Shown in pieces: positions 15,974 through 35,352 of a stretch of 44,406 nt of DNA. The position numbers and the translations under genes are program-made. The DNA comes from Atribacteria bacterium SCGC AAA255-G05 (GTDB taxonomy: Bacteria > Atribacterota > Phoenicimicrobiia > Phoenicimicrobiales > Phoenicimicrobiaceae): the NCBI GenBank assembly GCA_000405605.1, contig ASPA01000005.1:1-44406 (forward strand). Reading direction: 5' to 3'. Each line of letters starts with the position of its first letter. Within the stretch, counting starts at the first letter, position 1. A model generated the notes under the pieces. The model did not search any database. It saw nothing but the letters and a program-made list of their open reading frames with translations, and was not told the origin of the DNA.

Positions 15974-16019
15974 GGGCACGATACATCGTGCCCCTACTTG
16001 GGCGTATTGCAATACGCCC
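15974..16019. repeat. Two tandem GC-rich palindromic units (REP-like)
   Basis: GGGCACGA-taca-TCGTGCCC (15974-15993) and GGGCGTATTGCAATACGCCC (16000-16019). Each is followed by CTACT. No U-run on either strand. Located between the fhs stop and the RACo start. Confidence 0.6.
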
Positions 16020-16055
16020 CTACTAACGACTATTCACTATTCACTAACGACTAAT

Positions 16056-17753
16056 TTAGAACAATCCCACCGTATTCCCATTCTCATCGATATCTACTTT
16101 AGTAGCCGCCGGTACGGAAGGTAGCCCTGGCATAGTCATCATGGTTCCTAAAAGAGGATAGAGAAAACCTGCTCCTACTGATGCCCTGACATCTCTTACA
16201 GGTATACGGAAATTACGAGGTCTGCCTTTAACCGAGGGATCATGAGATAGGGAAAGATGAGTCTTAGCCATACAGATGGGGAGTTTATCAAAACCTATTT
16301 CACTAAATAATTTAATCTTTTTTTCAGCTAAGCTGGTATAGTCTACACCATCTGCACCGTAAATTTTGGTGGCGATAGTCTCAATCTTCTCTTTAATGGA
16401 TATATTAAGGGGATAGAGGTGGTGAAAATCGTTGGGTTTGTTGGTTGCTTCCACTACAGCTTCTGCTAATTCTATTGCCCCTTCTCCTCCTTTGGCCCAG
16501 ACTTCATGGGTAACCGCAGCGGTTGCTCCGGCAGCTAAGGCTTTTTCTTTAACCAGTTTGATCTCAGCCGGGGTATCGGTGGGGAAGCGGTTGATAACTA
16601 CTATGGGAGGCAGGCCGTGCAAGAGGACATTTTCTATGTGTTTCTCTAAGTTCTCACAACCTTTAGCTACAGAGTCTAAATCTTCCCGGGCTAGTGTTTC
16701 CTGGTCCAATGGTTCCCCGGCTACTACTTTTATCGCCCCACCGTGCATCTTTAAGGCGCGTACGGTACATACCACCACTGCTGAATCTACTTTCAGGCCG
16801 CTGGTACGGCACTTGATATTACACATCTTTTCAAAACCCATATCAGCACCAAAGCCGGATTCGGTGACCACATAGTCAGCACATTTGCAGGCGATGAGGT
16901 CAGCCAGAACGGAATTATTCCCGTGGGCAATATTGGCAAAGGGACCGCAGTGCATCAGACAGGGTCCGTGTTCCAAGGTCTGGATGAGGTTGGGTTTTAG
17001 AGCCTCTTTTAAGAGGACGGTCATGGCCCCGGCCGCCTTCAGGTCTTCGGCGGTGACCGGGAGGCCATCTTTGGTATAAGCCACGGTCATCCGAGCCAAT
17101 CGCGCTCGAAGATCAAAGATATCGGTAGCCAGAGAGAGGATAGCCATCACCTCTGAGGCCACGGTAATATCATAACCAGTTTCCCGGGGGAGGCCGTTGG
17201 CTTTACCCCCCAGGCCGATCACTATTTGACGTAAGGCACGGTCAGAGATATCCACCACCCGGTTGATATTGATGTTATGGATATCGATACCCAATTTATT
17301 ACCTTTCTGCAGGTGGGTATCCAGCAGGGCACAGAGCAGGTTATTGGCTGCGCCTACGGCATGGATGTCTCCGGTAAAGTGAAGATTAAGGTCTTCCATA
17401 GGAACGACTTGAGAATATCCTCCTCCGGCTGCTCCACCTTTAATACCGAAGACCGGACCCATAGATGGTTCCCTTAAAGTATTAATTACTTTCTTACCTA
17501 TTTTAGCCAGACCCTGGCCTAAGCCGATAGAAGTTACTGTCTTACCTTCACCCAGTGGGGTAGGGGTAATAGCAGTTACTACAATGTATTTGCCTTGAGG
17601 TCTATCTTGTAGTCTCTTTAAGATATCGGGGGAGACTTTGGCTTTGTACTTACCATAAAGGTCTAATTCATCTTCTTTTATCCCGATTGATTCTGCTATT
17701 TCGGTAATAGGTTTTAATTTTGCTTCCTGGGCAATTTTTAGATCTGATTTCAT
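16056..17753 (-). CDS. fhs: Formate--tetrahydrofolate ligase
   Basis: 565 aa. Highly conserved FTHFS pattern (TPTPLGEGKTVTSIGL, EPSMGPVFGIKGGAAGGGY, GFGADMGFEKM). GGAGG SD. Confidence 0.97.
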   Translation of the reverse strand: MKSDLKIAQEAKLKPITEIAESIGIKEDELDLYGKYKAKVSPDILKRLQDRPQGKYIVVTAITPTPLGEGKTVTSIGLGQGLAKIGKKVINTLREPSMGPVFGIKGGAAGGGYSQVVPMEDLNLHFTGDIHAVGAANNLLCALLDTHLQKGNKLGIDIHNININRVVDISDRALRQIVIGLGGKANGLPRETGYDITVASEVMAILSLATDIFDLRARLARMTVAYTKDGLPVTAEDLKAAGAMTVLLKEALKPNLIQTLEHGPCLMHCGPFANIAHGNNSVLADLIACKCADYVVTESGFGADMGFEKMCNIKCRTSGLKVDSAVVVCTVRALKMHGGAIKVVAGEPLDQETLAREDLDSVAKGCENLEKHIENVLLHGLPPIVVINRFPTDTPAEIKLVKEKALAAGATAAVTHEVWAKGGEGAIELAEAVVEATNKPNDFHHLYPLNISIKEKIETIATKIYGADGVDYTSLAEKKIKLFSEIGFDKLPICMAKTHLSLSHDPSVKGRPRNFRIPVRDVRASVGAGFLYPLLGTMMTMPGLPSVPAATKVDIDENGNTVGLF

Positions 17754-17772
17754 GGGGCGCCTCCTTGAGTTT

Positions 17773-18591
17773 TTATTTTATTTCGAAAGTTAACTTACCT
17801 TCTCTATAGGCCTGGATATAGCCACTGCAAAAATTATCCTCTCCCAGAAGAGTCATAGCAGTCTTGGTAATAGCCATCATTCTTTTATCTGTAGAATCAA
17901 TGATTGCTGCATCCATGCCACAGCCCATAGTCAAAATCATAAAGACTTGATTGATGAGCTTTCTCTCCGGAAGACCATAAGATATATTACTTAAACCCGT
18001 GACTATTTTAACTTCAGGATGGGCTTCCTTAACGCTTTTTATCGTTTCCATGGTTACCAAGCCATTTTTATCACTGGTTCCGATAGGCACTACTAAGGGA
18101 TCAATAAATATGTCTTTTAAAGGAACTCCGACATCAGTTAATACTTTTATTAATTTTTTGGCAATCTCAACCCGGGTTTTGGAATTATCAGGAATGCCTC
18201 GTTCATCCATAACAAGCGCTACTACCGCACATTTATATTTTACTATGGCAGGTAATAATCTATCAATTTTTTCTTTCTCACCGGTAATTGAATTAATTAA
18301 AGCTTTGCCTTTGTCCCAATTGTAAACTTCCAAGCCTTTTTCAATCTCTTCTGCGTTAGGACTATCAATGCATAAAGGGACATCTACCGCCTCTTGAACT
18401 GTTTTTACTAACCATTCCATATTTTCTTCTTTGTCACCACTGGCAGCGGAGGAATTTACATCCAGCATCTCAGCTCCACCTTCTACTTGCTTTTTGGCTA
18501 AATCCTGAATAGATTTTACATCTCTATTCTCAATCATTTCTCTAACTTGTTTCCGAGCAGAATTTAATTTTTCTCCGATAATTAACATCAT
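17773..18591 (-). CDS. Methyltetrahydrofolate:corrinoid methyltransferase (pterin-binding, MeTr/MtgA-like)
   Basis: 272 aa. IIGEKLNS start, LDVN, CIDS, NSI and GLSNISYGLP motifs of the pterin-binding TIM barrel. GGAGG SD. Confidence 0.85.
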   Translation of the reverse strand: MMLIIGEKLNSARKQVREMIENRDVKSIQDLAKKQVEGGAEMLDVNSSAASGDKEENMEWLVKTVQEAVDVPLCIDSPNAEEIEKGLEVYNWDKGKALINSITGEKEKIDRLLPAIVKYKCAVVALVMDERGIPDNSKTRVEIAKKLIKVLTDVGVPLKDIFIDPLVVPIGTSDKNGLVTMETIKSVKEAHPEVKIVTGLSNISYGLPERKLINQVFMILTMGCGMDAAIIDSTDKRMMAITKTAMTLLGEDNFCSGYIQAYREGKLTFEIK

Positions 18592-18679
18592 TTAACCTCC
18601 TTTTTTTACAAATACAAATAAATTATATCAAATGATTATACCTTATTGCTCAGTATCTATTGCAATAAGAATATTTGTT

Positions 18680-19699
18680 CTAAAGGTTGGTTATCCCCTT
18701 GACAATTTCAGGAATGATTTCAAACAGATCCCCGACTACGGCTATATCCGCAATCTGCATCATAGGTGTATCGGGGTTTTTGTCTATAGCTATGATCAAA
18801 TCACAAGACTGCATTCCTACAAGATGCTGAATCTGTCCGGAAATACCGCAGGCTATATAAACCTTTGTCTGAACTGTCTGTCCTGTCTGTCCGACCTGGT
18901 GTGCATAAGGGATCCAGCCCGAATCAACAGCTGCCCTGCTTGCACCTACAGCAGCTCCGCCTACCCTTTGGGCAAACTGTTTTAAAAGCTTAAAGCCTTC
19001 TGGACCTTTCATTCCCCTTCCGCCTGATATTATTATCTGTGCATCGGCAAGATTATAAGCAGTTTCGGTACTATGAAAAACATCTATTATCTGCTTGATC
19101 TTTTCGCTATCACTTGTAAGCATTTCTTCTTTTATAATTCTGCCGGTACGGCCGGGATCAGGTTCCGGTGATTTCATGACTCTTGGTCGTACGGTGGCCA
19201 TCTGAGGTCTGTGGTTTGAACAGCGGATAGTAGCCATGATATTACCACCAAAAGCCGGTCTTGTTTGAAGAAGGTCACCGTTTTCAGGGTCAATTGAAAG
19301 ACCCGTGCAGTCAGCTGTAAGACCACAATGTGTCATTACGGAAACTCGTGGAATCAGGGCACGTCCTCTCGTTGTGGCTCCGCAGATCACGACTTCGGGC
19401 TTATATTTTATGATAAGACGTTTCATGATTTTTGCTTCGGTTTCATCAATAAAACCGGATAATCCCGGATGGTCAACCACTATTACAACATCCGCTCCAT
19501 AGGCAAAAAGCGACTCTGGTTTTTCTTCAATACCGGATCCCATGACAACAACCCAGACTTCACTCTTTCTGAGATCTGCAAGAGTTCTTGCAGCACCTGT
19601 CAGCTCGTGTGTCACAGATTGTATTCCGCCGGCCAAAATCTCAGCGACTACCCATATATTGCGATATTCTTTTCTTTTAGCATCTGTAAAAGCTATCAT
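18680..19699 (-). CDS. etfA: Electron transfer flavoprotein alpha subunit (EtfA/FixB type)
   Basis: 339 aa. C-terminal FAD domain pattern: IIISGGRGMKGPEGF, VGASRAAVDSGW, QVGQTGQTV, YIACGISGQIQH. Confidence 0.9.
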   Translation of the reverse strand: MIAFTDAKRKEYRNIWVVAEILAGGIQSVTHELTGAARTLADLRKSEVWVVVMGSGIEEKPESLFAYGADVVIVVDHPGLSGFIDETEAKIMKRLIIKYKPEVVICGATTRGRALIPRVSVMTHCGLTADCTGLSIDPENGDLLQTRPAFGGNIMATIRCSNHRPQMATVRPRVMKSPEPDPGRTGRIIKEEMLTSDSEKIKQIIDVFHSTETAYNLADAQIIISGGRGMKGPEGFKLLKQFAQRVGGAAVGASRAAVDSGWIPYAHQVGQTGQTVQTKVYIACGISGQIQHLVGMQSCDLIIAIDKNPDTPMMQIADIAVVGDLFEIIPEIVKGITNL

Positions 19700-19715
19700 T
19701 TTTATCTCCTCTGGA

Positions 19716-20504
19716 TCAAACTATACTTCGCAGTCTTAACTCTCTTAGCAGACTCTGTGCACATTCTATTGAAGATCCTTCAATCTTTTTTGTGCTTGTG
19801 TGTCTGGGTGGTGGAGGCTGCGTTTTTACAACCCTTGTGGGTGATCCGTTCAGACCGATTTTTGATGTATCCGCACCTATATCACCGGGTTTCCATACTG
19901 GTACTTCACATTTATTTGAAGCCAGTCGGCCTTTAAGTGATGGTACACGGGGTGTATTGATGTCTTTTACGACGGTTATTACTGCAGGAAAAGACATTTC
20001 ACATATATCATAACCATCTTCATGCATCCTTTTGACCCTGATGGATGAGGAAGATATCTCTTCCACAGCCATAACATAAGTTGCTTGAAGCCAGTCAAGA
20101 TGAGCTGCAATTCCAGGACCTACCTGGGCTGTATCACCATCTATGGCCTGCTTACCGCAAATGACCAGATCAATATCCCCGATCTTTTTAATAGCTTTTG
20201 CAAGGGCATAGCTTGTAGCCCATGTATCCGAACCACCAAAAGCCCGGTCACTGAGCAGAATGGCTCTGTCAACTCCCACTGAAATAGCCTCTCTCAGGCT
20301 TGCTTCAGCTTTTGGCGGACCCATTGACAGGGCAATCACTTCTCCTCCGAATTTGTCTCTCAACTGTACACCTTCTTCCACAGCGTAAGTGTCAAAAGGA
20401 TTCAAGATCGCTTTCATACCTTCTCTTATGATGCGTTTTGTTTCAGGATCGATTTTAGCATCGTTAGTTGCCGGTACCTGCTTGATACATACTACTATTT
20501 TCAT
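19716..20504 (-). CDS. etfB: Electron transfer flavoprotein beta subunit (EtfB/FixA type), bifurcating-type signature
   Basis: 262 aa. MKIVVCIKQVP start. CGKQAIDGDTAQVGPGIAAHLDW motif. Confidence 0.9.
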   Translation of the reverse strand: MKIVVCIKQVPATNDAKIDPETKRIIREGMKAILNPFDTYAVEEGVQLRDKFGGEVIALSMGPPKAEASLREAISVGVDRAILLSDRAFGGSDTWATSYALAKAIKKIGDIDLVICGKQAIDGDTAQVGPGIAAHLDWLQATYVMAVEEISSSSIRVKRMHEDGYDICEMSFPAVITVVKDINTPRVPSLKGRLASNKCEVPVWKPGDIGADTSKIGLNGSPTRVVKTQPPPPRHTSTKKIEGSSIECAQSLLRELRLRSIV

Positions 20505-20529
20505 AACGCCTCCCTGCGATTACGGGTTC

Positions 20530-21327
20530 TCAGACCCAGGTATCTTTAATCAGATGGTATTGTGTTTTAAATCCGAGCAGTGATAGGTAAACACCGCACC
20601 CCGGATATAATTTGTGGAGCATTTTTAAAGTGGATATCGGGTCAAATTCTGTATTCTCAGGTATTTCATAACCGACTGCTTCCGAAAGAAGATGCAGTTT
20701 TCTGCTCATCCAGGCCTCTACAATTACCGGTATTCCAGGATATTTTTCAAGAAGTCTGTCGACAATTTCATTTCTCTCTATCAAAGGCTGGGTAATAATG
20801 AAAGTGGCCCCTGCTTTTATTTTTCTTTCCATCTTTTCAAGTTCGTGTTCTTCCGGTTCATAAGGATTGAATGCGACTCCGAGTACAAAAGTATCCGGAT
20901 ACTCTCGGTTTATGTACTTTAACAGTTCAACAGAAGTGACGGACTCGACATCAGTGGCGCCTACATCGGAAGGATGAAGCTTTGGAAGACGCTCCGAACC
21001 ATCTCCTGTTATTATCAAGAGATATCTGATTCCTTTTGTCTTACATATGTTAAGAATGTTGTCTAGATCATCTTTTGTATGAAAAGTATTCAGGTGAATC
21101 ATTACCTGCTCTGGTATGACGGGAAGGTCAAGTTCCTCAATTATTTCTGTTCCCTGGAATGACAGGAGACCCATTGCATTATCGGTTATACATGCACAAT
21201 AACCGCTGTCCATAACCCTGAGATATTTATTTGAAAATCTTTCAAGATCCTTTTCAAGCTTTTCTGAATCCTGTTTGGGTGGTAAAACTTCAACGTGGTA
21301 GATCTTATTCTGGATGTGATGAATCAT
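20530..21327 (-). CDS. Divergent methylenetetrahydrofolate reductase (MTHFR)-family protein
   Basis: 265 aa. Loose but colinear MTHFR pattern: VEVLPPK, CITDNAMG, IHLNTFHT, IRYLLIITGDGS, LGVAFNPYEPE, KIKAGATFIITQP, IPVIVEAW. Shorter and more diverged than classical MetF. Confidence 0.65.
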   Translation of the reverse strand: MIHHIQNKIYHVEVLPPKQDSEKLEKDLERFSNKYLRVMDSGYCACITDNAMGLLSFQGTEIIEELDLPVIPEQVMIHLNTFHTKDDLDNILNICKTKGIRYLLIITGDGSERLPKLHPSDVGATDVESVTSVELLKYINREYPDTFVLGVAFNPYEPEEHELEKMERKIKAGATFIITQPLIERNEIVDRLLEKYPGIPVIVEAWMSRKLHLLSEAVGYEIPENTEFDPISTLKMLHKLYPGCGVYLSLLGFKTQYHLIKDTWV

Positions 21328-22427: not shown

Positions 22428-23864
22428 TTACATTAATCCTTTTATCTTTGACTTTAGTTTCTGGTAAACTTCTATAGGAATAGGTAATGGTTTATGATTA
22501 GTTAGAATTTCTTCTACTTTTTCCCGTGCTCGAGTTCTGGTATCTTTGCTTCCTAAATTTTCCCATTCAGTTCTATGTTGACGATCTGCAAGAGTGGGGA
22601 AATATAATTCTTTACGCATATTTTGTACTGTATGCATCTCGGCAAGAAAATTCCCAGCTGGACCAACTTTAGCAATTAAATCTTCTGCCAAGGTCTCTTT
22701 ATCTACTTTAATCCCTTGCACCATTCGCATAACCATCCCTAAAATATCATTATCAATTACTGCTTTTTCAAAACTGATAGTCATACAAAACTCTAAGTTA
22801 CCAGCAGCATCATGGATAAAATTCGCTCCTGACAAAGCAACAGCTAACGCGCTGATTGCCGATTCATATCCTGCTTGAGCATCAGGAATTTTGGAATCAG
22901 ACATTCCAGCAGTAGCATAATAAGGAAGTTTTACATTCTGAGCTAATTGGGCTACACCAGCATTTATAAGACCCGGCTCCGCTCCGGCTCCAAGATAAAT
23001 ACCTTTTTGCATATCCATAATAGAAGCGGTTGAAGCATATATAACCGGAGTTCCGGGGTTAACTAACTGAGCCAGGGTTACACAAGCCAAAGTCTCTGCG
23101 TTAATTAAAACTAAATCACCTGCTAAAGTAACTGGACCAGTTGCTCCGGTTAGAACTTCACTGGGGCAAGCTACCGGTAGACCTTTACGAGCAATCTCAA
23201 TTAGAAATTCAGTATAAGTATTTTCTAATTTTAAAGGACTCATGACACAAGTAATAAAAGAAATAAATGGACATTTTTTTAACTGCTCTGCACCTCCAGC
23301 AATTTCTTCTGCCATTTTAATAGTTTCCAGTAATCCTGCTTTATCATAGATACCTCCCATAATATGTTTGGAAGTATTGGAAATACCTGCGTAAAATCTA
23401 TTTACATCAACTGTTTCTTTGGGTAATTCTGTAGGATATAAAGGTAAGAGATAAAAATGAACATTATCTAAGGCATCAACTAACTTAGCAAATTGCGCAA
23501 CATCTTCTAAAGTAGAAGGTCTCTTTTTGTTAGTTTCCCAATCAAGTACGTTTAAAACAGTACCACCAGTCCCAAAATATACATTTGAACCTTCTAAAAC
23601 AAGATTATGTTTATCTTCTCTACCGTAAAGAATCACCTTGGAAGGAGCTGTGTCAATAGCATTTTCTACCATCTTATGGGGTATTTTTACTATACGCTTG
23701 TCAAAATCAACCTCTGCTCCTTTTTCTTTAAATATATCTAATGCTTCTTTACAGTTTACTTCCATCCCTACATTTTCCAAAAGTCGAAGTGATGTGTTAT
23801 GAATATCTTTGATTCCCTCTGGCGAAAGAGGTTTATATTGACCTCCCGGTAAACCACCTATCAT
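22428..23864 (-). CDS. MttB-superfamily methyltransferase, non-pyrrolysine member (substrate:corrinoid methyltransferase; substrate unknown)
   Basis: 478 uninterrupted codons with no in-frame TAG. Family pattern throughout (LSPEGIKDIHNTSLRLLENVGMEV, FGTGG, GATGPVTLAG, YYATAGMSDSK, GANFIHDAAG, GPAGNFL). GGAGG SD. Confidence 0.9.
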   Translation of the reverse strand: MIGGLPGGQYKPLSPEGIKDIHNTSLRLLENVGMEVNCKEALDIFKEKGAEVDFDKRIVKIPHKMVENAIDTAPSKVILYGREDKHNLVLEGSNVYFGTGGTVLNVLDWETNKKRPSTLEDVAQFAKLVDALDNVHFYLLPLYPTELPKETVDVNRFYAGISNTSKHIMGGIYDKAGLLETIKMAEEIAGGAEQLKKCPFISFITCVMSPLKLENTYTEFLIEIARKGLPVACPSEVLTGATGPVTLAGDLVLINAETLACVTLAQLVNPGTPVIYASTASIMDMQKGIYLGAGAEPGLINAGVAQLAQNVKLPYYATAGMSDSKIPDAQAGYESAISALAVALSGANFIHDAAGNLEFCMTISFEKAVIDNDILGMVMRMVQGIKVDKETLAEDLIAKVGPAGNFLAEMHTVQNMRKELYFPTLADRQHRTEWENLGSKDTRTRAREKVEEILTNHKPLPIPIEVYQKLKSKIKGLM

Positions 23865-32477: not shown

Positions 32478-32666
32478 AGAATAACAAATAAATATTATCT
32501 TTAGTTTTTCTAATCTTATATCAAGGATATTATCTTATAACAGACTTTCTATTTTTCATTTCACCCGCTCCTCTTATAATTAATAAAATCCTATTACTTT
32601 TTTATTCCATACATTATCACTATAATCGTAAATTATTTTTTTATAATACTTTAAAATTTAACCTCA

Positions 32667-33376
32667 CTGAAACCCTTACAAAATAAGGCTTTCCGCCCAC
32701 ATCTAAGATAAGCCCTTTTAAGCGCCTATTTTAAAAAATATGAACAATCACTCCAGGCCACCTTAAAAAACGTAACTACGACAATATTTTTCTGAAAGCC
32801 TTATATCGCAAGGCTTTCAGACACGTAAAAATAGAGATTTTAGCCCTTTTTTGTCTCATTTTCTCTCTATTTTAGAAGCACTATCACTATCCTATATAAA
32901 AAAACGCTGAAACCCTTATGTTTGCTTTGTTTTAAAGCCTTCCTATTTTTTATTGTAAAAACTAATAATCCTCTAATTCCATATATATCTACTTCCCTTG
33001 TTTAGATAAAAACCTGTTCTCTGTTCCCCCTCTTTTTCTCCTTTACTGTAAAAAATGGTCTTCCTGAAAGCCTTGTATAATAAGGGTTTCAAAGGTAGGC
33101 TGCGTATTTTTGATTTTAAGCGACTATTTTGCCTCAACTTATGGTTTTACCCTCGGAAAATAGGTGTTTTTTGGCCTATTTTCACCCCCCCCCCAAAAAA
33201 ACCTAAAAATGGCTTCCTGTAAGGTTTACAGAATTTCGGGGAGGTCAAAAAAGACTAAAAAAAATGTCGTAATTACCGATTTTTCGAAAATTGAAGCCCG
33301 TTTAAAGGCACTCTACGTGCGTTAAAAGGATATTCCTGAAGAGGGTCTGAAAACCTTGTATAAAAAAGGCTTTCAG
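32667..33376. repeat. Array of 5 (6 with a variant) related palindromic hairpins in an ORF-free stretch
   Basis: CTGAAAGCCTT-N7-AAGGCTTTCAG is perfect at 32792-32820. Near-perfect copies at 33347-33376 and 33064-33092. Weaker copies at 32667-32694 and 32907-32940. Variant CTGTAAGGTTTACAG at 33217-33231. Spacing is 115-157 bp. Confidence 0.6.
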
Positions 33377-33411
33377 GGGGGATAAATATATTAAAATAAC
33401 AACACATCCTA

Positions 33412-33560
33412 TTTTTTCTATGGTTCAGCTTTCCATTTCGCGAGGCCTTCCTTTAGGACATCTATCTATAGCAATACCTAAAACTCAACTATCCGGTAAG
33501 GAACTCCTAAGACTCAATAGTTTGTCCGCTAAAAGTTATCGAACTATTAACCTGGTAACC
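33412..33560 (-). repeat. Internally deleted paralog (copy A) of the structured-RNA-like element at 34745-35205
   Basis: 33412-33472 is near-identical to 34745-34805, with 2 substitutions in the ~50-nt core. The next ~60 nt are diverged but alignable. 33527-33560 aligns with 35171-35205. The 306-nt core of copy B is missing. Confidence 0.55.
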
Positions 33561-33623
33561 TTCTATTTATTTAATTTAAAAACAAAAATGTTAATTGTCT
33601 AGGAAAATGGGATGGGTACCTAT

Positions 33624-34637
33624 TTATTTCAAAAGTCCTCTCTTAATCATGGAATCAACTTCATCGTTTGCACCCACATGGTGGATAGTGATATTTGGAT
33701 ATTCATTTTTGAAAACACGGAATACTTCATCTACGAAAGCTTGCCCTACAGATACGACTCCTTTGAAATCTAGAATGATTGTATTGAATTTTTCAAGACC
33801 CATTAATAATCGTTTTGCTTCTGACCTTGATACGTGAGGATCATTCGGATCCCCGCTTAACGCCACTGCTACGATTGTTTTTCCGAATCCAATCTCTTGG
33901 TCGGCGTATTGATCGAACACGCCTTTTGGTGTCTTTTTTGAATCGAGCGAGAGAACCATTTTAATGAGCGTGCCTTTTTTGAAATCTTCATTTTTTTCTG
34001 GCGAAAAAAACCAATCCTCGTTTTGAAATGTATAGAATATATCACTTGAAAGGATTGAAAAGCTATCAAACATCCTGGATGTAAAGAATATCCCCTCTCC
34101 TGTATGGTGTAATGGATCAGTTGTGAATTTACCTTTTGACAAATGGAGGATGGATTCCTTGATGGAATCTAAGTGTAGCGCTTTTTGAATTTTTTTGAAT
34201 ATCCCGATTCCATTATCCTTGATTATAATATTTAAAGTATTATTGCTAACTTCTATTTCCGTAATAATTGTGGTTCCTTTTGAATGGTCGATGGCATTAT
34301 TAAAAATCTCGGTAAAGCCGTAAGCACAAATTCTATAAATATTTTCCGGGTAGGATAAAATCATTGGTTTAACATATTTTAACCAAACTCTGTCTTCTGC
34401 TATACCAGGTTTTATTTTTTCGATGAATTGAATATATTTTCCATCAGCAAGAAAGTAATGTGTCCACCTCGTGCGCCCCGTTTTGATGATATTTCCATTT
34501 TCTACTTCTCTTATTAGGCATCGATGGGCTCTCTGCCTTGAAAATCCAAATTTCTTGGCCAGAACTATTGCAATGTCCCCTGGATGATTTTCTACATTAT
34601 CGAGGATAAATTTTTGTATAGTACTGCTTTTATTCAT
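33624..34637 (-). CDS. wHTH - GHKL (histidine-kinase-like) ATPase - STAS-like (DUF4325) fusion protein
   Basis: 337 aa. N-terminal wHTH-like 60 aa. GHKL N-box (EIFNNAIDHS), G1 (IKDNGIGI), G2-like (HHTGEGIFF). C-terminal ILDFKGVVSVGQAFVDEVFRVF is typical of DUF4325/STAS. No SD; an apparently leaderless promoter lies upstream. Confidence 0.8.
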   Translation of the reverse strand: MNKSSTIQKFILDNVENHPGDIAIVLAKKFGFSRQRAHRCLIREVENGNIIKTGRTRWTHYFLADGKYIQFIEKIKPGIAEDRVWLKYVKPMILSYPENIYRICAYGFTEIFNNAIDHSKGTTIITEIEVSNNTLNIIIKDNGIGIFKKIQKALHLDSIKESILHLSKGKFTTDPLHHTGEGIFFTSRMFDSFSILSSDIFYTFQNEDWFFSPEKNEDFKKGTLIKMVLSLDSKKTPKGVFDQYADQEIGFGKTIVAVALSGDPNDPHVSRSEAKRLLMGLEKFNTIILDFKGVVSVGQAFVDEVFRVFKNEYPNITIHHVGANDEVDSMIKRGLLK

Positions 34638-34642
34638 AAATT

Positions 34643-34718
34643 AATTATAATCTATTTGTAGTTCTTTGTAAACCCCCAAATCATTCTTTGTAAACCCTGC
34701 TCAGGACTTTTTGTAAAC
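34643..34718 (-). promoter_or_regulatory. Leaderless-type promoter overlapped by three iteron-like direct repeats
   Basis: The - strand reads GGTTTACAAAGAACTACAAATAGATTATAATTAATTTATG: -35 TTTACA (34671-34666), 17-nt spacer, -10 TATAAT (34648-34643), 6 nt, then ATG (34637). GGGTTTACAAAGAA occurs at 34674-34661 and 34696-34683, and GGTTTACAAAAAG at 34718-34706, 22-23 bp apart. Confidence 0.5.
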
Positions 34719-34744
34719 CTTGATTATTTAAACAGGGATACATC

Positions 34745-35205
34745 TTTTTTTCTACGGTTTAGCTTTCCATTTCGCGAGGCCTTCCTTTAGGACATCTATC
34801 TATTATAGTAATATCTAAAGCCTCAACCATCTAGTTAAGAAACTCTTCAGATCCTATGGTTGTCACGGTAGGACAGCCAGTTACCTGACTGCCCCCGCAC
34901 AGATCCTCTTTAGAATCTCACATTTAGCGATTCTTTTGTATAGGCTTCCGTTGCAGAAATGACGGCGCCATCTGCATTCATCTTTATTTACGAGGCTGTA
35001 TCATTCACTTTTGGGAAGTACGGTCTTCCCTATGGCCTATCTGTTTCCCTGTGTACGCTTCATCTAATGGTTACCCATTTTGATGCAACGCTTGGTATGG
35101 GTGGTTGGTTAGACCTTGCCCAGCAAGGACTTTCACCCTGCAAGACATATAAAACTTCTTGGCGCTCTTTCGCTAAAAGTTTTCGAATTATTAATCCGGC
35201 ACACC
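34745..35205 (-). ncRNA. Unclassified structured-RNA-like element (copy B), about 460 nt; strand assigned from GNRA loops
   Basis: GC-richer than its flanks. On the - strand there are two GUAA-capped hairpins (34874-34891; 35061-85 with an internal loop). Further clean hairpins at 35013-35030 and 35114-35128. No - strand ORF of 60 aa or more. The + strand ORF of copy A is broken in copy B (ATG to ACG, CAG to TAG). No known RNA family recognised. Confidence 0.4.
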
Positions 35206-35249
35206 TCGTTTCCTGTCACATTGACTGGCTGCTTCATCATTTCAAAATA

Positions 35250-35276
35250 AAAAGTCTCCTGTAAAAGGAGACTTTT
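35250..35276. terminator. Intrinsic-terminator-like hairpin, usable on both strands
   Basis: AAAAGTCTCCT-gtaaa-AGGAGACTTTT, an 11-bp perfect stem. T-run TTTTTAT on the + strand; TTTTTATTTTG on the - strand. Confidence 0.6.
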
Positions 35277-35324
35277 TATCGACCGGCATCCCGATCTAAA
35301 TTAACAAGCTTATCGTACAATTGT

Positions 35325-35352
35325 ATTATACCTTAGAGAAATGATTTGTCAA
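35325..35352 (-). promoter_or_regulatory. Consensus sigma-70 promoter on the - strand
   Basis: - strand TTGACA (35352-35347), 16-nt spacer, TATAAT (35330-35325). Both hexamers match consensus exactly. Divergent from the UDG gene. Confidence 0.55.

Follow-up and report, generated by a model that had tools for sequence, protein, structure and literature searches.

A single-chain winged-helix, GHKL and DUF4325 protein with candidate operator repeats in its own promoter in an Atribacterota genome

The locus and the encoded protein

We analysed a 44,406-nt stretch of DNA from Atribacteria bacterium SCGC AAA255-G05 (contig ASPA01000005.1 of assembly GCA_000405605.1, positions 1 to 44,406 of the forward strand), which is referred to here as the window. 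Its minus strand carries a gene for a protein of 337 amino acids (aa) in which a winged helix-turn-helix (wHTH), a GHKL kinase-like domain and a STAS-like DUF4325 tail follow one another in that order within one chain. The gene had been singled out by an earlier interpretation of the letters and open reading frames (ORFs), called the sequence-only reading below, as a leaderless one-protein module with iteron-like operators. The ATG of the 337-aa ORF is the earliest possible start past an in-frame TAA, and the positions of the gene, its promoter, its repeats and the elements on either side are collected in Table 1.

Table 1. Features of the gene, its promoter region and its flanks, numbered as in the window.
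Feature	Position	Strand	Basis
Coding sequence, wHTH / GHKL kinase-like / DUF4325 (VapS-type STAS), 337 aa	33624..34637	-	ORF, Pfam, AlphaFold2, Foldseek
Predicted -10 box TATAAT, 6 nt ahead of ATG	34644..34649	-	Consensus scan; close loci alike
Candidate operator repeat 3 (GGGTTTACAAAGAAC), holds the -35 box TTTACA (34672-34667)	34661..34675	-	Repeat and promoter scans
Candidate operator repeat 2 (GGGTTTACAAAGAAT), 22 bp upstream of repeat 3	34683..34697	-	Also in Candidate Phyla Radiation (CPR) loci L008-L010
Candidate operator repeat 1 (GGTTTACAAAAAG), 23 bp upstream of repeat 2	34707..34719	-	Repeat scan, close loci
3' part of the ~170-nt boundary unit, the 3' exon of the intron remnant	34724..34861	-	82-85% identical to 33512-33387
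Group II intron remnant, GUGUG to CCUACCGUGAC, ORF-less; domains D1-D4 and D6 kept, D5 deleted	34862..35204	-	Rfam RF02005
Downstream ~170-nt boundary unit, end of the shared cassette	33390..33563	-	L001 departs from the window at ~33389

The three-domain architecture, and with it the likening of the protein to an RsbW/SpoIIAB-type kinase joined to a STAS domain, was borne out by Pfam, AlphaFold2 and Foldseek and by the match of the STAS antitoxin VapS to DUF4325. The profile search that the sequence-only reading had proposed as a check gave a clear DUF4325 assignment (PF14213; E = 3.8e-13, 49.4 bits against a gathering cutoff of 23, residues 274-327), a HATPase_c match just below its cutoff, a weak HATPase_c_2 match (22.1 bits) and weak wHTH matches. 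HATPase_c or HATPase_c_2 is among the precomputed Pfam domains of many homologues. A scan of the protein against NCBIfam returned weak kinase matches and nothing more, and in PHROGs one family of unknown function matched it.

An AlphaFold2 model built from a 69-sequence alignment (predicted local distance difference test, pLDDT, 80.3; predicted template modelling score, pTM, 0.68) displayed a winged helix at residues 1-75, a GHKL fold, a low-confidence linker at residues 247-257 and a STAS-like beta/alpha tail. The top PDB matches of this model in Foldseek were SpoIIAB (1til, 1l0o, 1th8, 1tid) and RsbW (6m36), with target TM-scores of 0.63-0.79, and the matches also included Hsp90 and GyrB. 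SLC26/prestin entries, which contain a STAS domain, matched the model as well, this match not being assigned to any part of it. Searches of PDB by sequence, with the whole protein and with a profile of the C-terminal domain, gave nothing useful and recovered neither CapS nor VapS. The N-box E-x3-N, the G1 motif D-x-G-x-G, the G2 glycines and the Bergerat fold that mark the GHKL superfamily are all present, and the domain, whose ATP-site residues are invariant or nearly so, is proposed to bind ATP.

The protein belongs to a large family. More than 7000 relatives were found in a collection clustered at 90%, many of them from Patescibacteria, and at least 712 clusters at 50% identity had E < 1e-30, nearly all of about 340 aa and matched over their full length. 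The nearest genomes are Atribacterota metagenome-assembled genomes (MAGs) at 89-99% identity, and the names that homologues carry are merely automatic ("DUF4325 domain-containing", "STAS-like domain-containing", "anti-sigma regulatory factor"). Residue conservation was counted across 421 homologues. E110 and G182 were each found in 420 of these, and N114, H118, D141, G143, G145, H178 and G180 in all 421. The lid segment K-G-K-x-T-T-D-P-x2-H-T-G-E-G-I-F-F was almost invariant and the motif S270-R271-S272 nearly so. For the family, mean column identity is 62% across clades that are ~43% identical to one another. The ratio of non-synonymous to synonymous substitution (dN/dS) against three Atribacterota copies (L005-L007) was 0.14-0.21, indicating purifying selection. 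Given this conserved family and these ratios, the gene is to be regarded as functional and strongly constrained, and as judged from sequence comparison it is real and well conserved.

Two rare fusions were observed in the family. The whole module is fused to a C-terminal Fic/DOC domain in a MAG of Candidatus Porisulfidus (L038, 5905-8187), and in protein P0133 it is accompanied by an N-terminal RHS-like region. The two hint at an effector link, which could be real or could be an artefact of assembly or gene calling, sequencing error being possible in L038.

Promoter and operator repeats

Upstream of the gene, on the minus strand, a TTTACA hexamer, a 17-nt spacer, TATAAT and the six letters TAATTT lead directly into the ATG at 34637. 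This promoter scored 11 of 12 in a consensus scan, and there is no space for a Shine-Dalgarno sequence between the -10 box and the ATG. A -10 box placed for a start at or beside the ATG, together with the missing Shine-Dalgarno sequence, is the pattern of a leaderless gene, and a leaderless mRNA from TTTACA-17-TATAAT is predicted, as the sequence-only reading had proposed. The same spacing was found in 12 of 12 close loci (from Atribacterota, Patescibacteria, Peregrinibacteria and Bdellovibrionales), where the -10 box (TATAAT or TACAAT) ends 6 nt, in one case 7 nt, before the ATG and the sequence of the 6-nt spacer varies. Upstream of it these loci hold three or four (G)GTTTACA(A/G)A repeats, 22-23 bp apart.

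In the window the sequence GTTTACAAA occurs three times, and all three copies lie in the promoter of this gene (34718-34710, 34695-34687 and 34673-34665). The expected count is 0.86 per window, and three or more copies anywhere were found in 4 of 100 shuffles; the clustering of the copies and their conservation in homologues put the occurrence well beyond chance. The three copies and the spacing of 22-23 bp were thus upheld as first described, but the -35 box, which had been credited to the first repeat, is supplied by the gene-proximal one.

A more distant clade (Proteobacteria, Cyanobacteria and others; ~43% identity) carries three or four copies of (G)GTTGACAAT at a spacing of 21-22 bp, with the start codon 0-30 nt past the last repeat and sometimes with a Shine-Dalgarno-like sequence. 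The leaderless design therefore belongs to the clade of the window protein and not to the whole family.

A de novo search, in which the commonest 9-mer of each upstream region was taken from 61 loci, recovered a GTT(T/G)ACAA-type motif with at least three copies in 32 of the loci, from several phyla, and the spacings of the repeats were dominated by 22 bp (34 cases) and 21 bp (22 cases). The 8-mer GTT[GT]ACAA was present in 37 copies in the 140-nt regions upstream of the gene itself in 21 loci, compared to 15 copies in the other ~258 kb. No second operator cluster was found within ~6 kb in the 21 loci, nor in the 44-kb window.

The recognition helix of the winged helix varies together with the repeats. 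Helices of the form S-R-Q-x-A-His38 are paired with TTTACA operators in 9 of 10 loci and those of the form R-Q-A-x-Asn38 with TTGACA in all listed Asn38 loci (~16), while L031 and L060 have divergent recognition helices and divergent repeats. This covariation is the strongest available evidence that the winged helix of the protein reads the repeats, and it suggests that the protein itself binds this DNA. Conservation across phyla (32 of 61 loci), restriction to the gene's own promoter and covariation with the helix together argue for autoregulation through the repeats, one of the two uses that had been suggested for them.

The STAS-like tail and the closest known systems

The closest characterized systems pair a GHKL kinase with a STAS protein. 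CapK (HTH-STAS-GHKL) is switched on by single-stranded DNA and phosphorylates a conserved Ser of CapS (STAS-wHTH), which represses its own promoter and a downstream immune operon (Chambers et al., EMBO J 2026, PMC13373217). VapS is the STAS antitoxin of the VapKSC system, and its phosphorylation at S48 by the kinase VapK frees the PIN toxin VapC (PMC13373217). When the published sequences were compared to Pfam, VapS itself matched DUF4325 (62.7 bits, E = 2.7e-17), and CapS and CapK did not. That VapS is a DUF4325 protein agrees with an earlier description of PIN.4 VapC as 'transcriptionally coupled to DUF4325' (PMC5499597).

An hhalign comparison paired residues 280-296 of the window protein with VapS 29-45 in a gapless alignment. 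Extending this register through the conserved anchors L, D, F, V and F places VapS S48 opposite Gln299, which is the first residue of helix alpha-2 in the AlphaFold2 model. Position 299 in the 421 homologues is Q (361), I (25), P (19), R (8), L (3) or H (2) and never Ser or Thr, and the VapS-family tail is therefore not phosphorylatable at the canonical site. A substitute acceptor at S296 was considered and rejected, the position being variable among the same homologues (S 225, T 63, E 38, F 15, A 12, L 9). The sequence-only reading had placed a kinase and its RsbV/SpoIIAA-type antagonist on one chain; the fold agrees with that description, but a tail with Gln299 cannot serve as the canonical substrate.

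Genomic context and mobility

The neighbours of the gene in the window are metabolic or housekeeping genes (sodium:solute symporter, uracil-DNA glycosylase, U32 peptidase, NIF3, transketolase and similar). No conserved neighbour gene was found in 41 species-representative loci or in 48 IMG/VR loci, which confirms the earlier description of a solo gene unrelated to the metabolic genes around it. The statement that no partner sigma factor lies nearby also held, with none in the neighbourhood in the window and none conserved across more than 80 loci. In 30 of 76 loci the gene downstream runs convergently, so that control of an adjacent operon in the sense of CapKS does not apply; a role as controller of an adjacent operon was ruled out on this ground together with the heterogeneity of the neighbours.

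All homologue loci are chromosomal or prophage. Homologues with 33-44% identity were found in 48 IMG/VR prophage/viral loci. The gene lies upstream of small and large terminase genes in 12 of these, with a phrog_36 regulator within ~1.1 kb (just upstream in 10, downstream in 2), and other IMG/VR loci have CI/LexA-like repressors or integrases nearby.

The DNA of the Patescibacteria loci L008-L010 matches the window at 75-82% identity, beginning ~60 nt ahead of the ATG (near 34697) and ending at the stop codon. Since the similarity is confined to promoter and gene, the promoter, the operators and the gene travel together. Locus L001 encodes an identical protein in a different context, its DNA matching the window at 98% identity between 34857 and 33389 and diverging beyond. 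In L001 (1544-1647) the identical cassette lies directly upstream of a purine riboswitch and a purE-purC-purSQL-purF-purM-purN cluster. L005 has the downstream flank of the window in common and holds one more cassette, and in contigs of Atribacterota MAGs the adjoining cassettes encode AbiEi/AbiEii, an NTP_transf_8 pair and a DUF6941 set. These comparisons point to a stand-alone, horizontally mobile gene. The survey of homologue contexts that had been suggested, which asked after enrichment in defence islands or mobile elements, was thus borne out in part: there was no general defence-island signature, but prophage loci (48 IMG/VR) and toxin-antitoxin (TA) and Abi cassette neighbours were found.

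Flanking repeats and the group II intron remnant

The gene is bracketed by two related stretches, of which 33412-33469 and 34746-34803 are 97% identical over 58 nt, with the likeness running on to ~130-170 nt. The ~170-nt unit consists of 37 nt of an intron 5' end and ~125 nt of 3'-exon sequence. The intron itself was identified by a match to RF02005 (D1-D4) at 35133-34885, with 98.1 bits against a gathering score of 49, and the element opens with GUGUGCC at 35204. Relatives at L004, L007, L135, L165 and L169 have ~115-330 nt more, in which a D5 hairpin is present along with a D6 that has a bulged A (fold energy -41.8 kcal/mol, z = -3.7; RF00029 at 36.7 bits, below the gathering score of 40, E = 1.6e-5). 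When D6 and the 3' splice site were aligned in these relatives, the 3' boundary of the intron fell after CCUACCGUGAC, at 34862 of the window. Some 320 nt, D5 among them, are missing from the window copy; they were apparently removed by a deletion between short similar repeats (GGGTCTGTCGGGG / GGGATCTGTGCGGGGG), and without D5 the copy is a dead remnant. Since the intron stops at 34862, short of the promoter, it does not carry the gene as cargo; a position of the gene inside intron domain IV was rejected, D5/D6 and the 3' splice site having been located upstream of the promoter. The RNA-like repeats that had been said to bracket the gene are thus real, but they are not partner RNAs of the gene, being remnants of a group II intron and a common boundary element.

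A scan of metagenomes found at least 120 stretches with the repeat unit, of which 80 loci were fetched (L093-L172, e.g., L111 with 5 copies, L117 and L099). At least two units are present in 16 of the 80, always on the same strand and 0.2-5.6 kb apart, and 40 of the 44 intervening ORFs are co-oriented with the units. The products are of mixed accessory, TA and defence type (HigB, GmrSD, AlbA_2, Beta_protein, DUF4145, FRG, HerA, GGDEF/HD, deaminase, HAD), and the GHKL gene is in none of the 80 loci. The gene therefore reads as one cassette in a variable, integron-like array whose boundary repeats bear an intron scar. No canonical attC cores (RYYYAAC...GTTRRRY) were seen by eye in the ~170-nt unit, and no integrase was found among the genes annotated adjoining the array. 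A convincing conserved fold was not found in the unit, where covariation was weak (1 of 39 pairs compensatory). Arrays of the ~170-nt unit in metagenomes may be a finding in their own right.

Other features of the window

A perfect sigma-70 consensus promoter (TTGACA-16-TATAAT, 12 of 12) is present on the minus strand at 35325-35352 and is followed ~45 nt further on by a perfect 11-bp hairpin with a T-run (AAAAGTCTCCT...AGGAGACTTTTTATTTT; 35247-35279, minus strand). The pair, situated a short way upstream of where the intron begins and oriented divergently to the uracil-DNA glycosylase gene, could produce a very short transcript or act as an attenuator. Four ~28-nt palindromic hairpins (TGAAAGCCTT-N8-AAGGCTTTCA) were found at 32657-33377 at irregular spacings of 125, 272 and 283 nt; they sit in a ~900-nt stretch that has no long ORF, between the symporter gene and the cassette, and L005 matches part of it with 72% identity. 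At 22805-22904 (minus strand) Rfam PYLIS_3, the mttB pyrrolysine insertion element, scored 62 bits inside ORF 22428-23864, an uninterrupted 478-aa MttB-family ORF (Pfam MTTB, E = 1e-118). The ORF presumably encodes an MttB homologue of the non-pyrrolysine kind, the PYLIS_3 match probably reflecting similarity of coding sequence. The G+C fraction of 16001-21000 is 0.38-0.47 against a background of 0.28-0.36.

Discussion

Taken together, these observations led us to favour, at confidence that is evenly balanced, a reading in which the protein is a self-repressing, one-chain analogue of CapK/CapS and VapK/VapS. Transcription would start from TTTACA-17-TATAAT and give a leaderless mRNA beginning at or beside the A of the ATG. 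The N-terminal winged helix would bind the three GTTTACAAA direct repeats, which are two helical turns apart and would present one face of the DNA, and since the gene-proximal repeat covers the -35 box the protein would repress its own synthesis. The GHKL domain would bind ATP, and DUF4325 would dock on the kinase of the same chain as SpoIIAA does on SpoIIAB; with Gln at the acceptor site, it would act as a pseudosubstrate or regulatory, non-consumable partner. A cue from stress or phage, perhaps single-stranded DNA by analogy with CapK/VapK, would shift this internal docking or the oligomeric state, and the change would release the promoter and free a kinase surface for a further target. Both the internal docking and the nature of the cue are drawn from the known systems, and the output may be defence-like or addiction-like. 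Such a role in conflict or addiction is weakly favoured by the Fic fusion and by the occurrence of the gene in mobile, prophage and TA-cassette settings.

The sequence-only reading held that proteins of this architecture are uncharacterised. This stands for the exact arrangement, since a one-chain wHTH-GHKL-DUF4325 protein is not described in PMC13373217, but the related CapK/CapS and VapK/VapS/VapC were characterized there in 2026. In a search of literature full text no other paper names the Pfam accession, and "DUF4325" has only three mentions, all incidental.

With CapK/CapS the window protein shares the same types of module (HTH, anti-sigma-type GHKL kinase, STAS) and a similar N-box (FSELIGNVRDHSES in CapK, FTEIFNNAIDHSKG here). 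CapS, a wHTH repressor with cooperative multi-site DNA binding, acts on its own promoter, as is proposed for the protein here. The differences are that two proteins are replaced by one chain in the order wHTH-GHKL-STAS, that the invariant phospho-Ser of CapS is replaced by Gln299, and that the TTAA palindromes bound by CapS are replaced by direct GTTTACAAA repeats; similarity to CapK in sequence is marginal. A capK-then-capS gene pair was not seen, there being no STAS-wHTH neighbour in the surveyed loci. Whereas capKS lies upstream of immune operons, no conserved downstream operon accompanies this gene, and the convergent downstream genes in 30 of 76 loci do not fit a position ahead of a co-directional immune or stress operon.

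The likeness to VapKSC lies in a tail from the Pfam family of VapS and in its pairing with a GHKL kinase that is broadly of the same type. The window protein differs in having Gln299 in place of VapS S48, an added wHTH and operators of its own, and a C-terminal STAS domain in place of the N-terminal one of VapK. There is no three-gene operon and no PIN toxin here: no PIN gene is adjacent in the window and none is among the commonest neighbour families of the surveyed loci. With type II TA systems the gene has in common a small self-contained unit, its own promoter with overlapping repeats, and an occurrence in prophages and beside AbiE/TA cassettes; it differs in being a single polypeptide, in which no toxin activity can be read from the sequence.

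Several observations weigh against the favoured reading. As the acceptor Ser is absent, the phosphorylation logic of CapS and VapS as published is inapplicable, and hhalign alignments to CapK and VapK were weak, covering the stretch from N-box to G1 with the common (D/E)HS motif. The domain assignments have soft spots, with a HATPase_c match of 26.2 bits that falls slightly below the Pfam cutoff of 26.4, weak MarR_2/PaaX winged-helix matches at residues 5-65, and moderate confidence for the STAS part of the AlphaFold2 model (pLDDT 57-84), from which the inter-domain geometry was not read. The repeats hold -35-like (TTGACA) and -10-like (GACAAT/TACAAT) hexamers at promoter spacing and may in part be tandem promoters rather than operators, especially in the TTGACAAT clade, and no such repeats were seen in the upstream-region search of the Firmicute-phage clade. 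In context, the immediate neighbours are mainly housekeeping genes with a few integrases, a resolvase and a terminase, a handful of 121 of them match defence models (a weak defence-island enrichment), no PADLOC model matches the protein, and curated phage and plasmid collections (plasmids n = 72,556, tblastn) hold no homologue. The housekeeping neighbourhoods, together with the absence of an effector domain, weaken a conflict or addiction output in particular.

The alternative that survives best, although we regard it as unlikely, is that the protein is a transcription factor and nothing more, whose GHKL-STAS part senses a nucleotide or other ligand and tunes DNA binding at a distant regulon and at its own promoter, with no kinase target and no toxic output. 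The wHTH, the operators in its own promoter, their covariation with the helix, the missing acceptor Ser and the mostly housekeeping neighbours would all fit such a factor. A distant regulon is, however, at odds with the lack of any additional operator cluster, both in the 44-kb window and within ~6 kb in 21 loci. The lid residues and the N-box Glu, which is of the catalytic type, do not vary, and a promoter-plus-gene unit that crosses phyla and is found in prophages and cassette arrays would be unusual for the controller of a host regulon.

An extension of the one-chain analogue, to which we give a somewhat smaller chance again, is a one-protein addiction or abortive-infection switch. An anti-sigma-type Ser kinase would be tethered to its own promoter and kept inactive by its STAS domain, a pseudosubstrate that Gln299 makes non-phosphorylatable. 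A cue from phage or DNA damage would release the kinase to phosphorylate or sequester a highly conserved host target (e.g., RNA polymerase/sigma), and the promoter-plus-gene unit would spread between phyla, including Patescibacteria with their small genomes.

An anti-sigma factor that works by classical partner switching as RsbW and SpoIIAB do, with its sigma factor encoded elsewhere and the fused STAS domain as antagonist, is improbable. SpoIIAB and RsbW are the best structural matches of the GHKL domain, the tail has a STAS-like fold, and the N-box follows E-x3-N-A-x2-H as it does in those kinases. A phrog_36 regulator also lies near the gene in 12 phage loci, one of these regulators with a weak sigma-70 region 4 match (E = 0.0033). 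The absence of a sigma partner, in the window neighbourhood and as a conserved neighbour in more than 80 loci, speaks against this explanation, as does the absence from all 421 homologues of the phosphorylatable Ser/Thr at the N-terminus of helix alpha-2 that defines partner switching. The fusion of kinase and STAS domain also sets the protein apart from SpoIIAB and RsbW, to which a DNA-binding head and dedicated operators are foreign.

Iteron-type binding, the second use that had been suggested for the repeats, did not hold up. Direct repeats of ~22 bp do resemble iterons, but a replication or maintenance protein of a small mobile replicon is very hard to reconcile with the lack of any tblastn match in the 72,556 plasmid records, with a fold that is not Rep-like in Foldseek, with loci that are every one chromosomal or prophage, and with repeats that overlap the gene's own promoter. 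Equally remote, and largely refuted, is a gene carried by or coupled to the flanking intron and repeat RNAs, for which a same-strand intron remnant 225 nt upstream of the ATG and repeat units on both sides could be cited, but the intron stops ahead of the promoter, the Patescibacteria homologues have promoter and gene only in common with the window, 0 of 80 repeat-unit metagenome loci carry the gene and the window intron copy is without D5.

Control of immune operons and of the VapC toxin by GHKL kinases and STAS proteins has only recently been established (CapKS and VapKSC, 2026). The family described here combines sensor, kinase, STAS domain and DNA-binding output in 337 aa, and is large and unstudied. 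Its natural replacement of Ser by Gln poses the question of how STAS-kinase modules signal without phosphorylation of the STAS domain, and with a defined operator, a leaderless start and a predicted code of one residue to one base (His38-T, Asn38-G), the gene would offer a compact test system.

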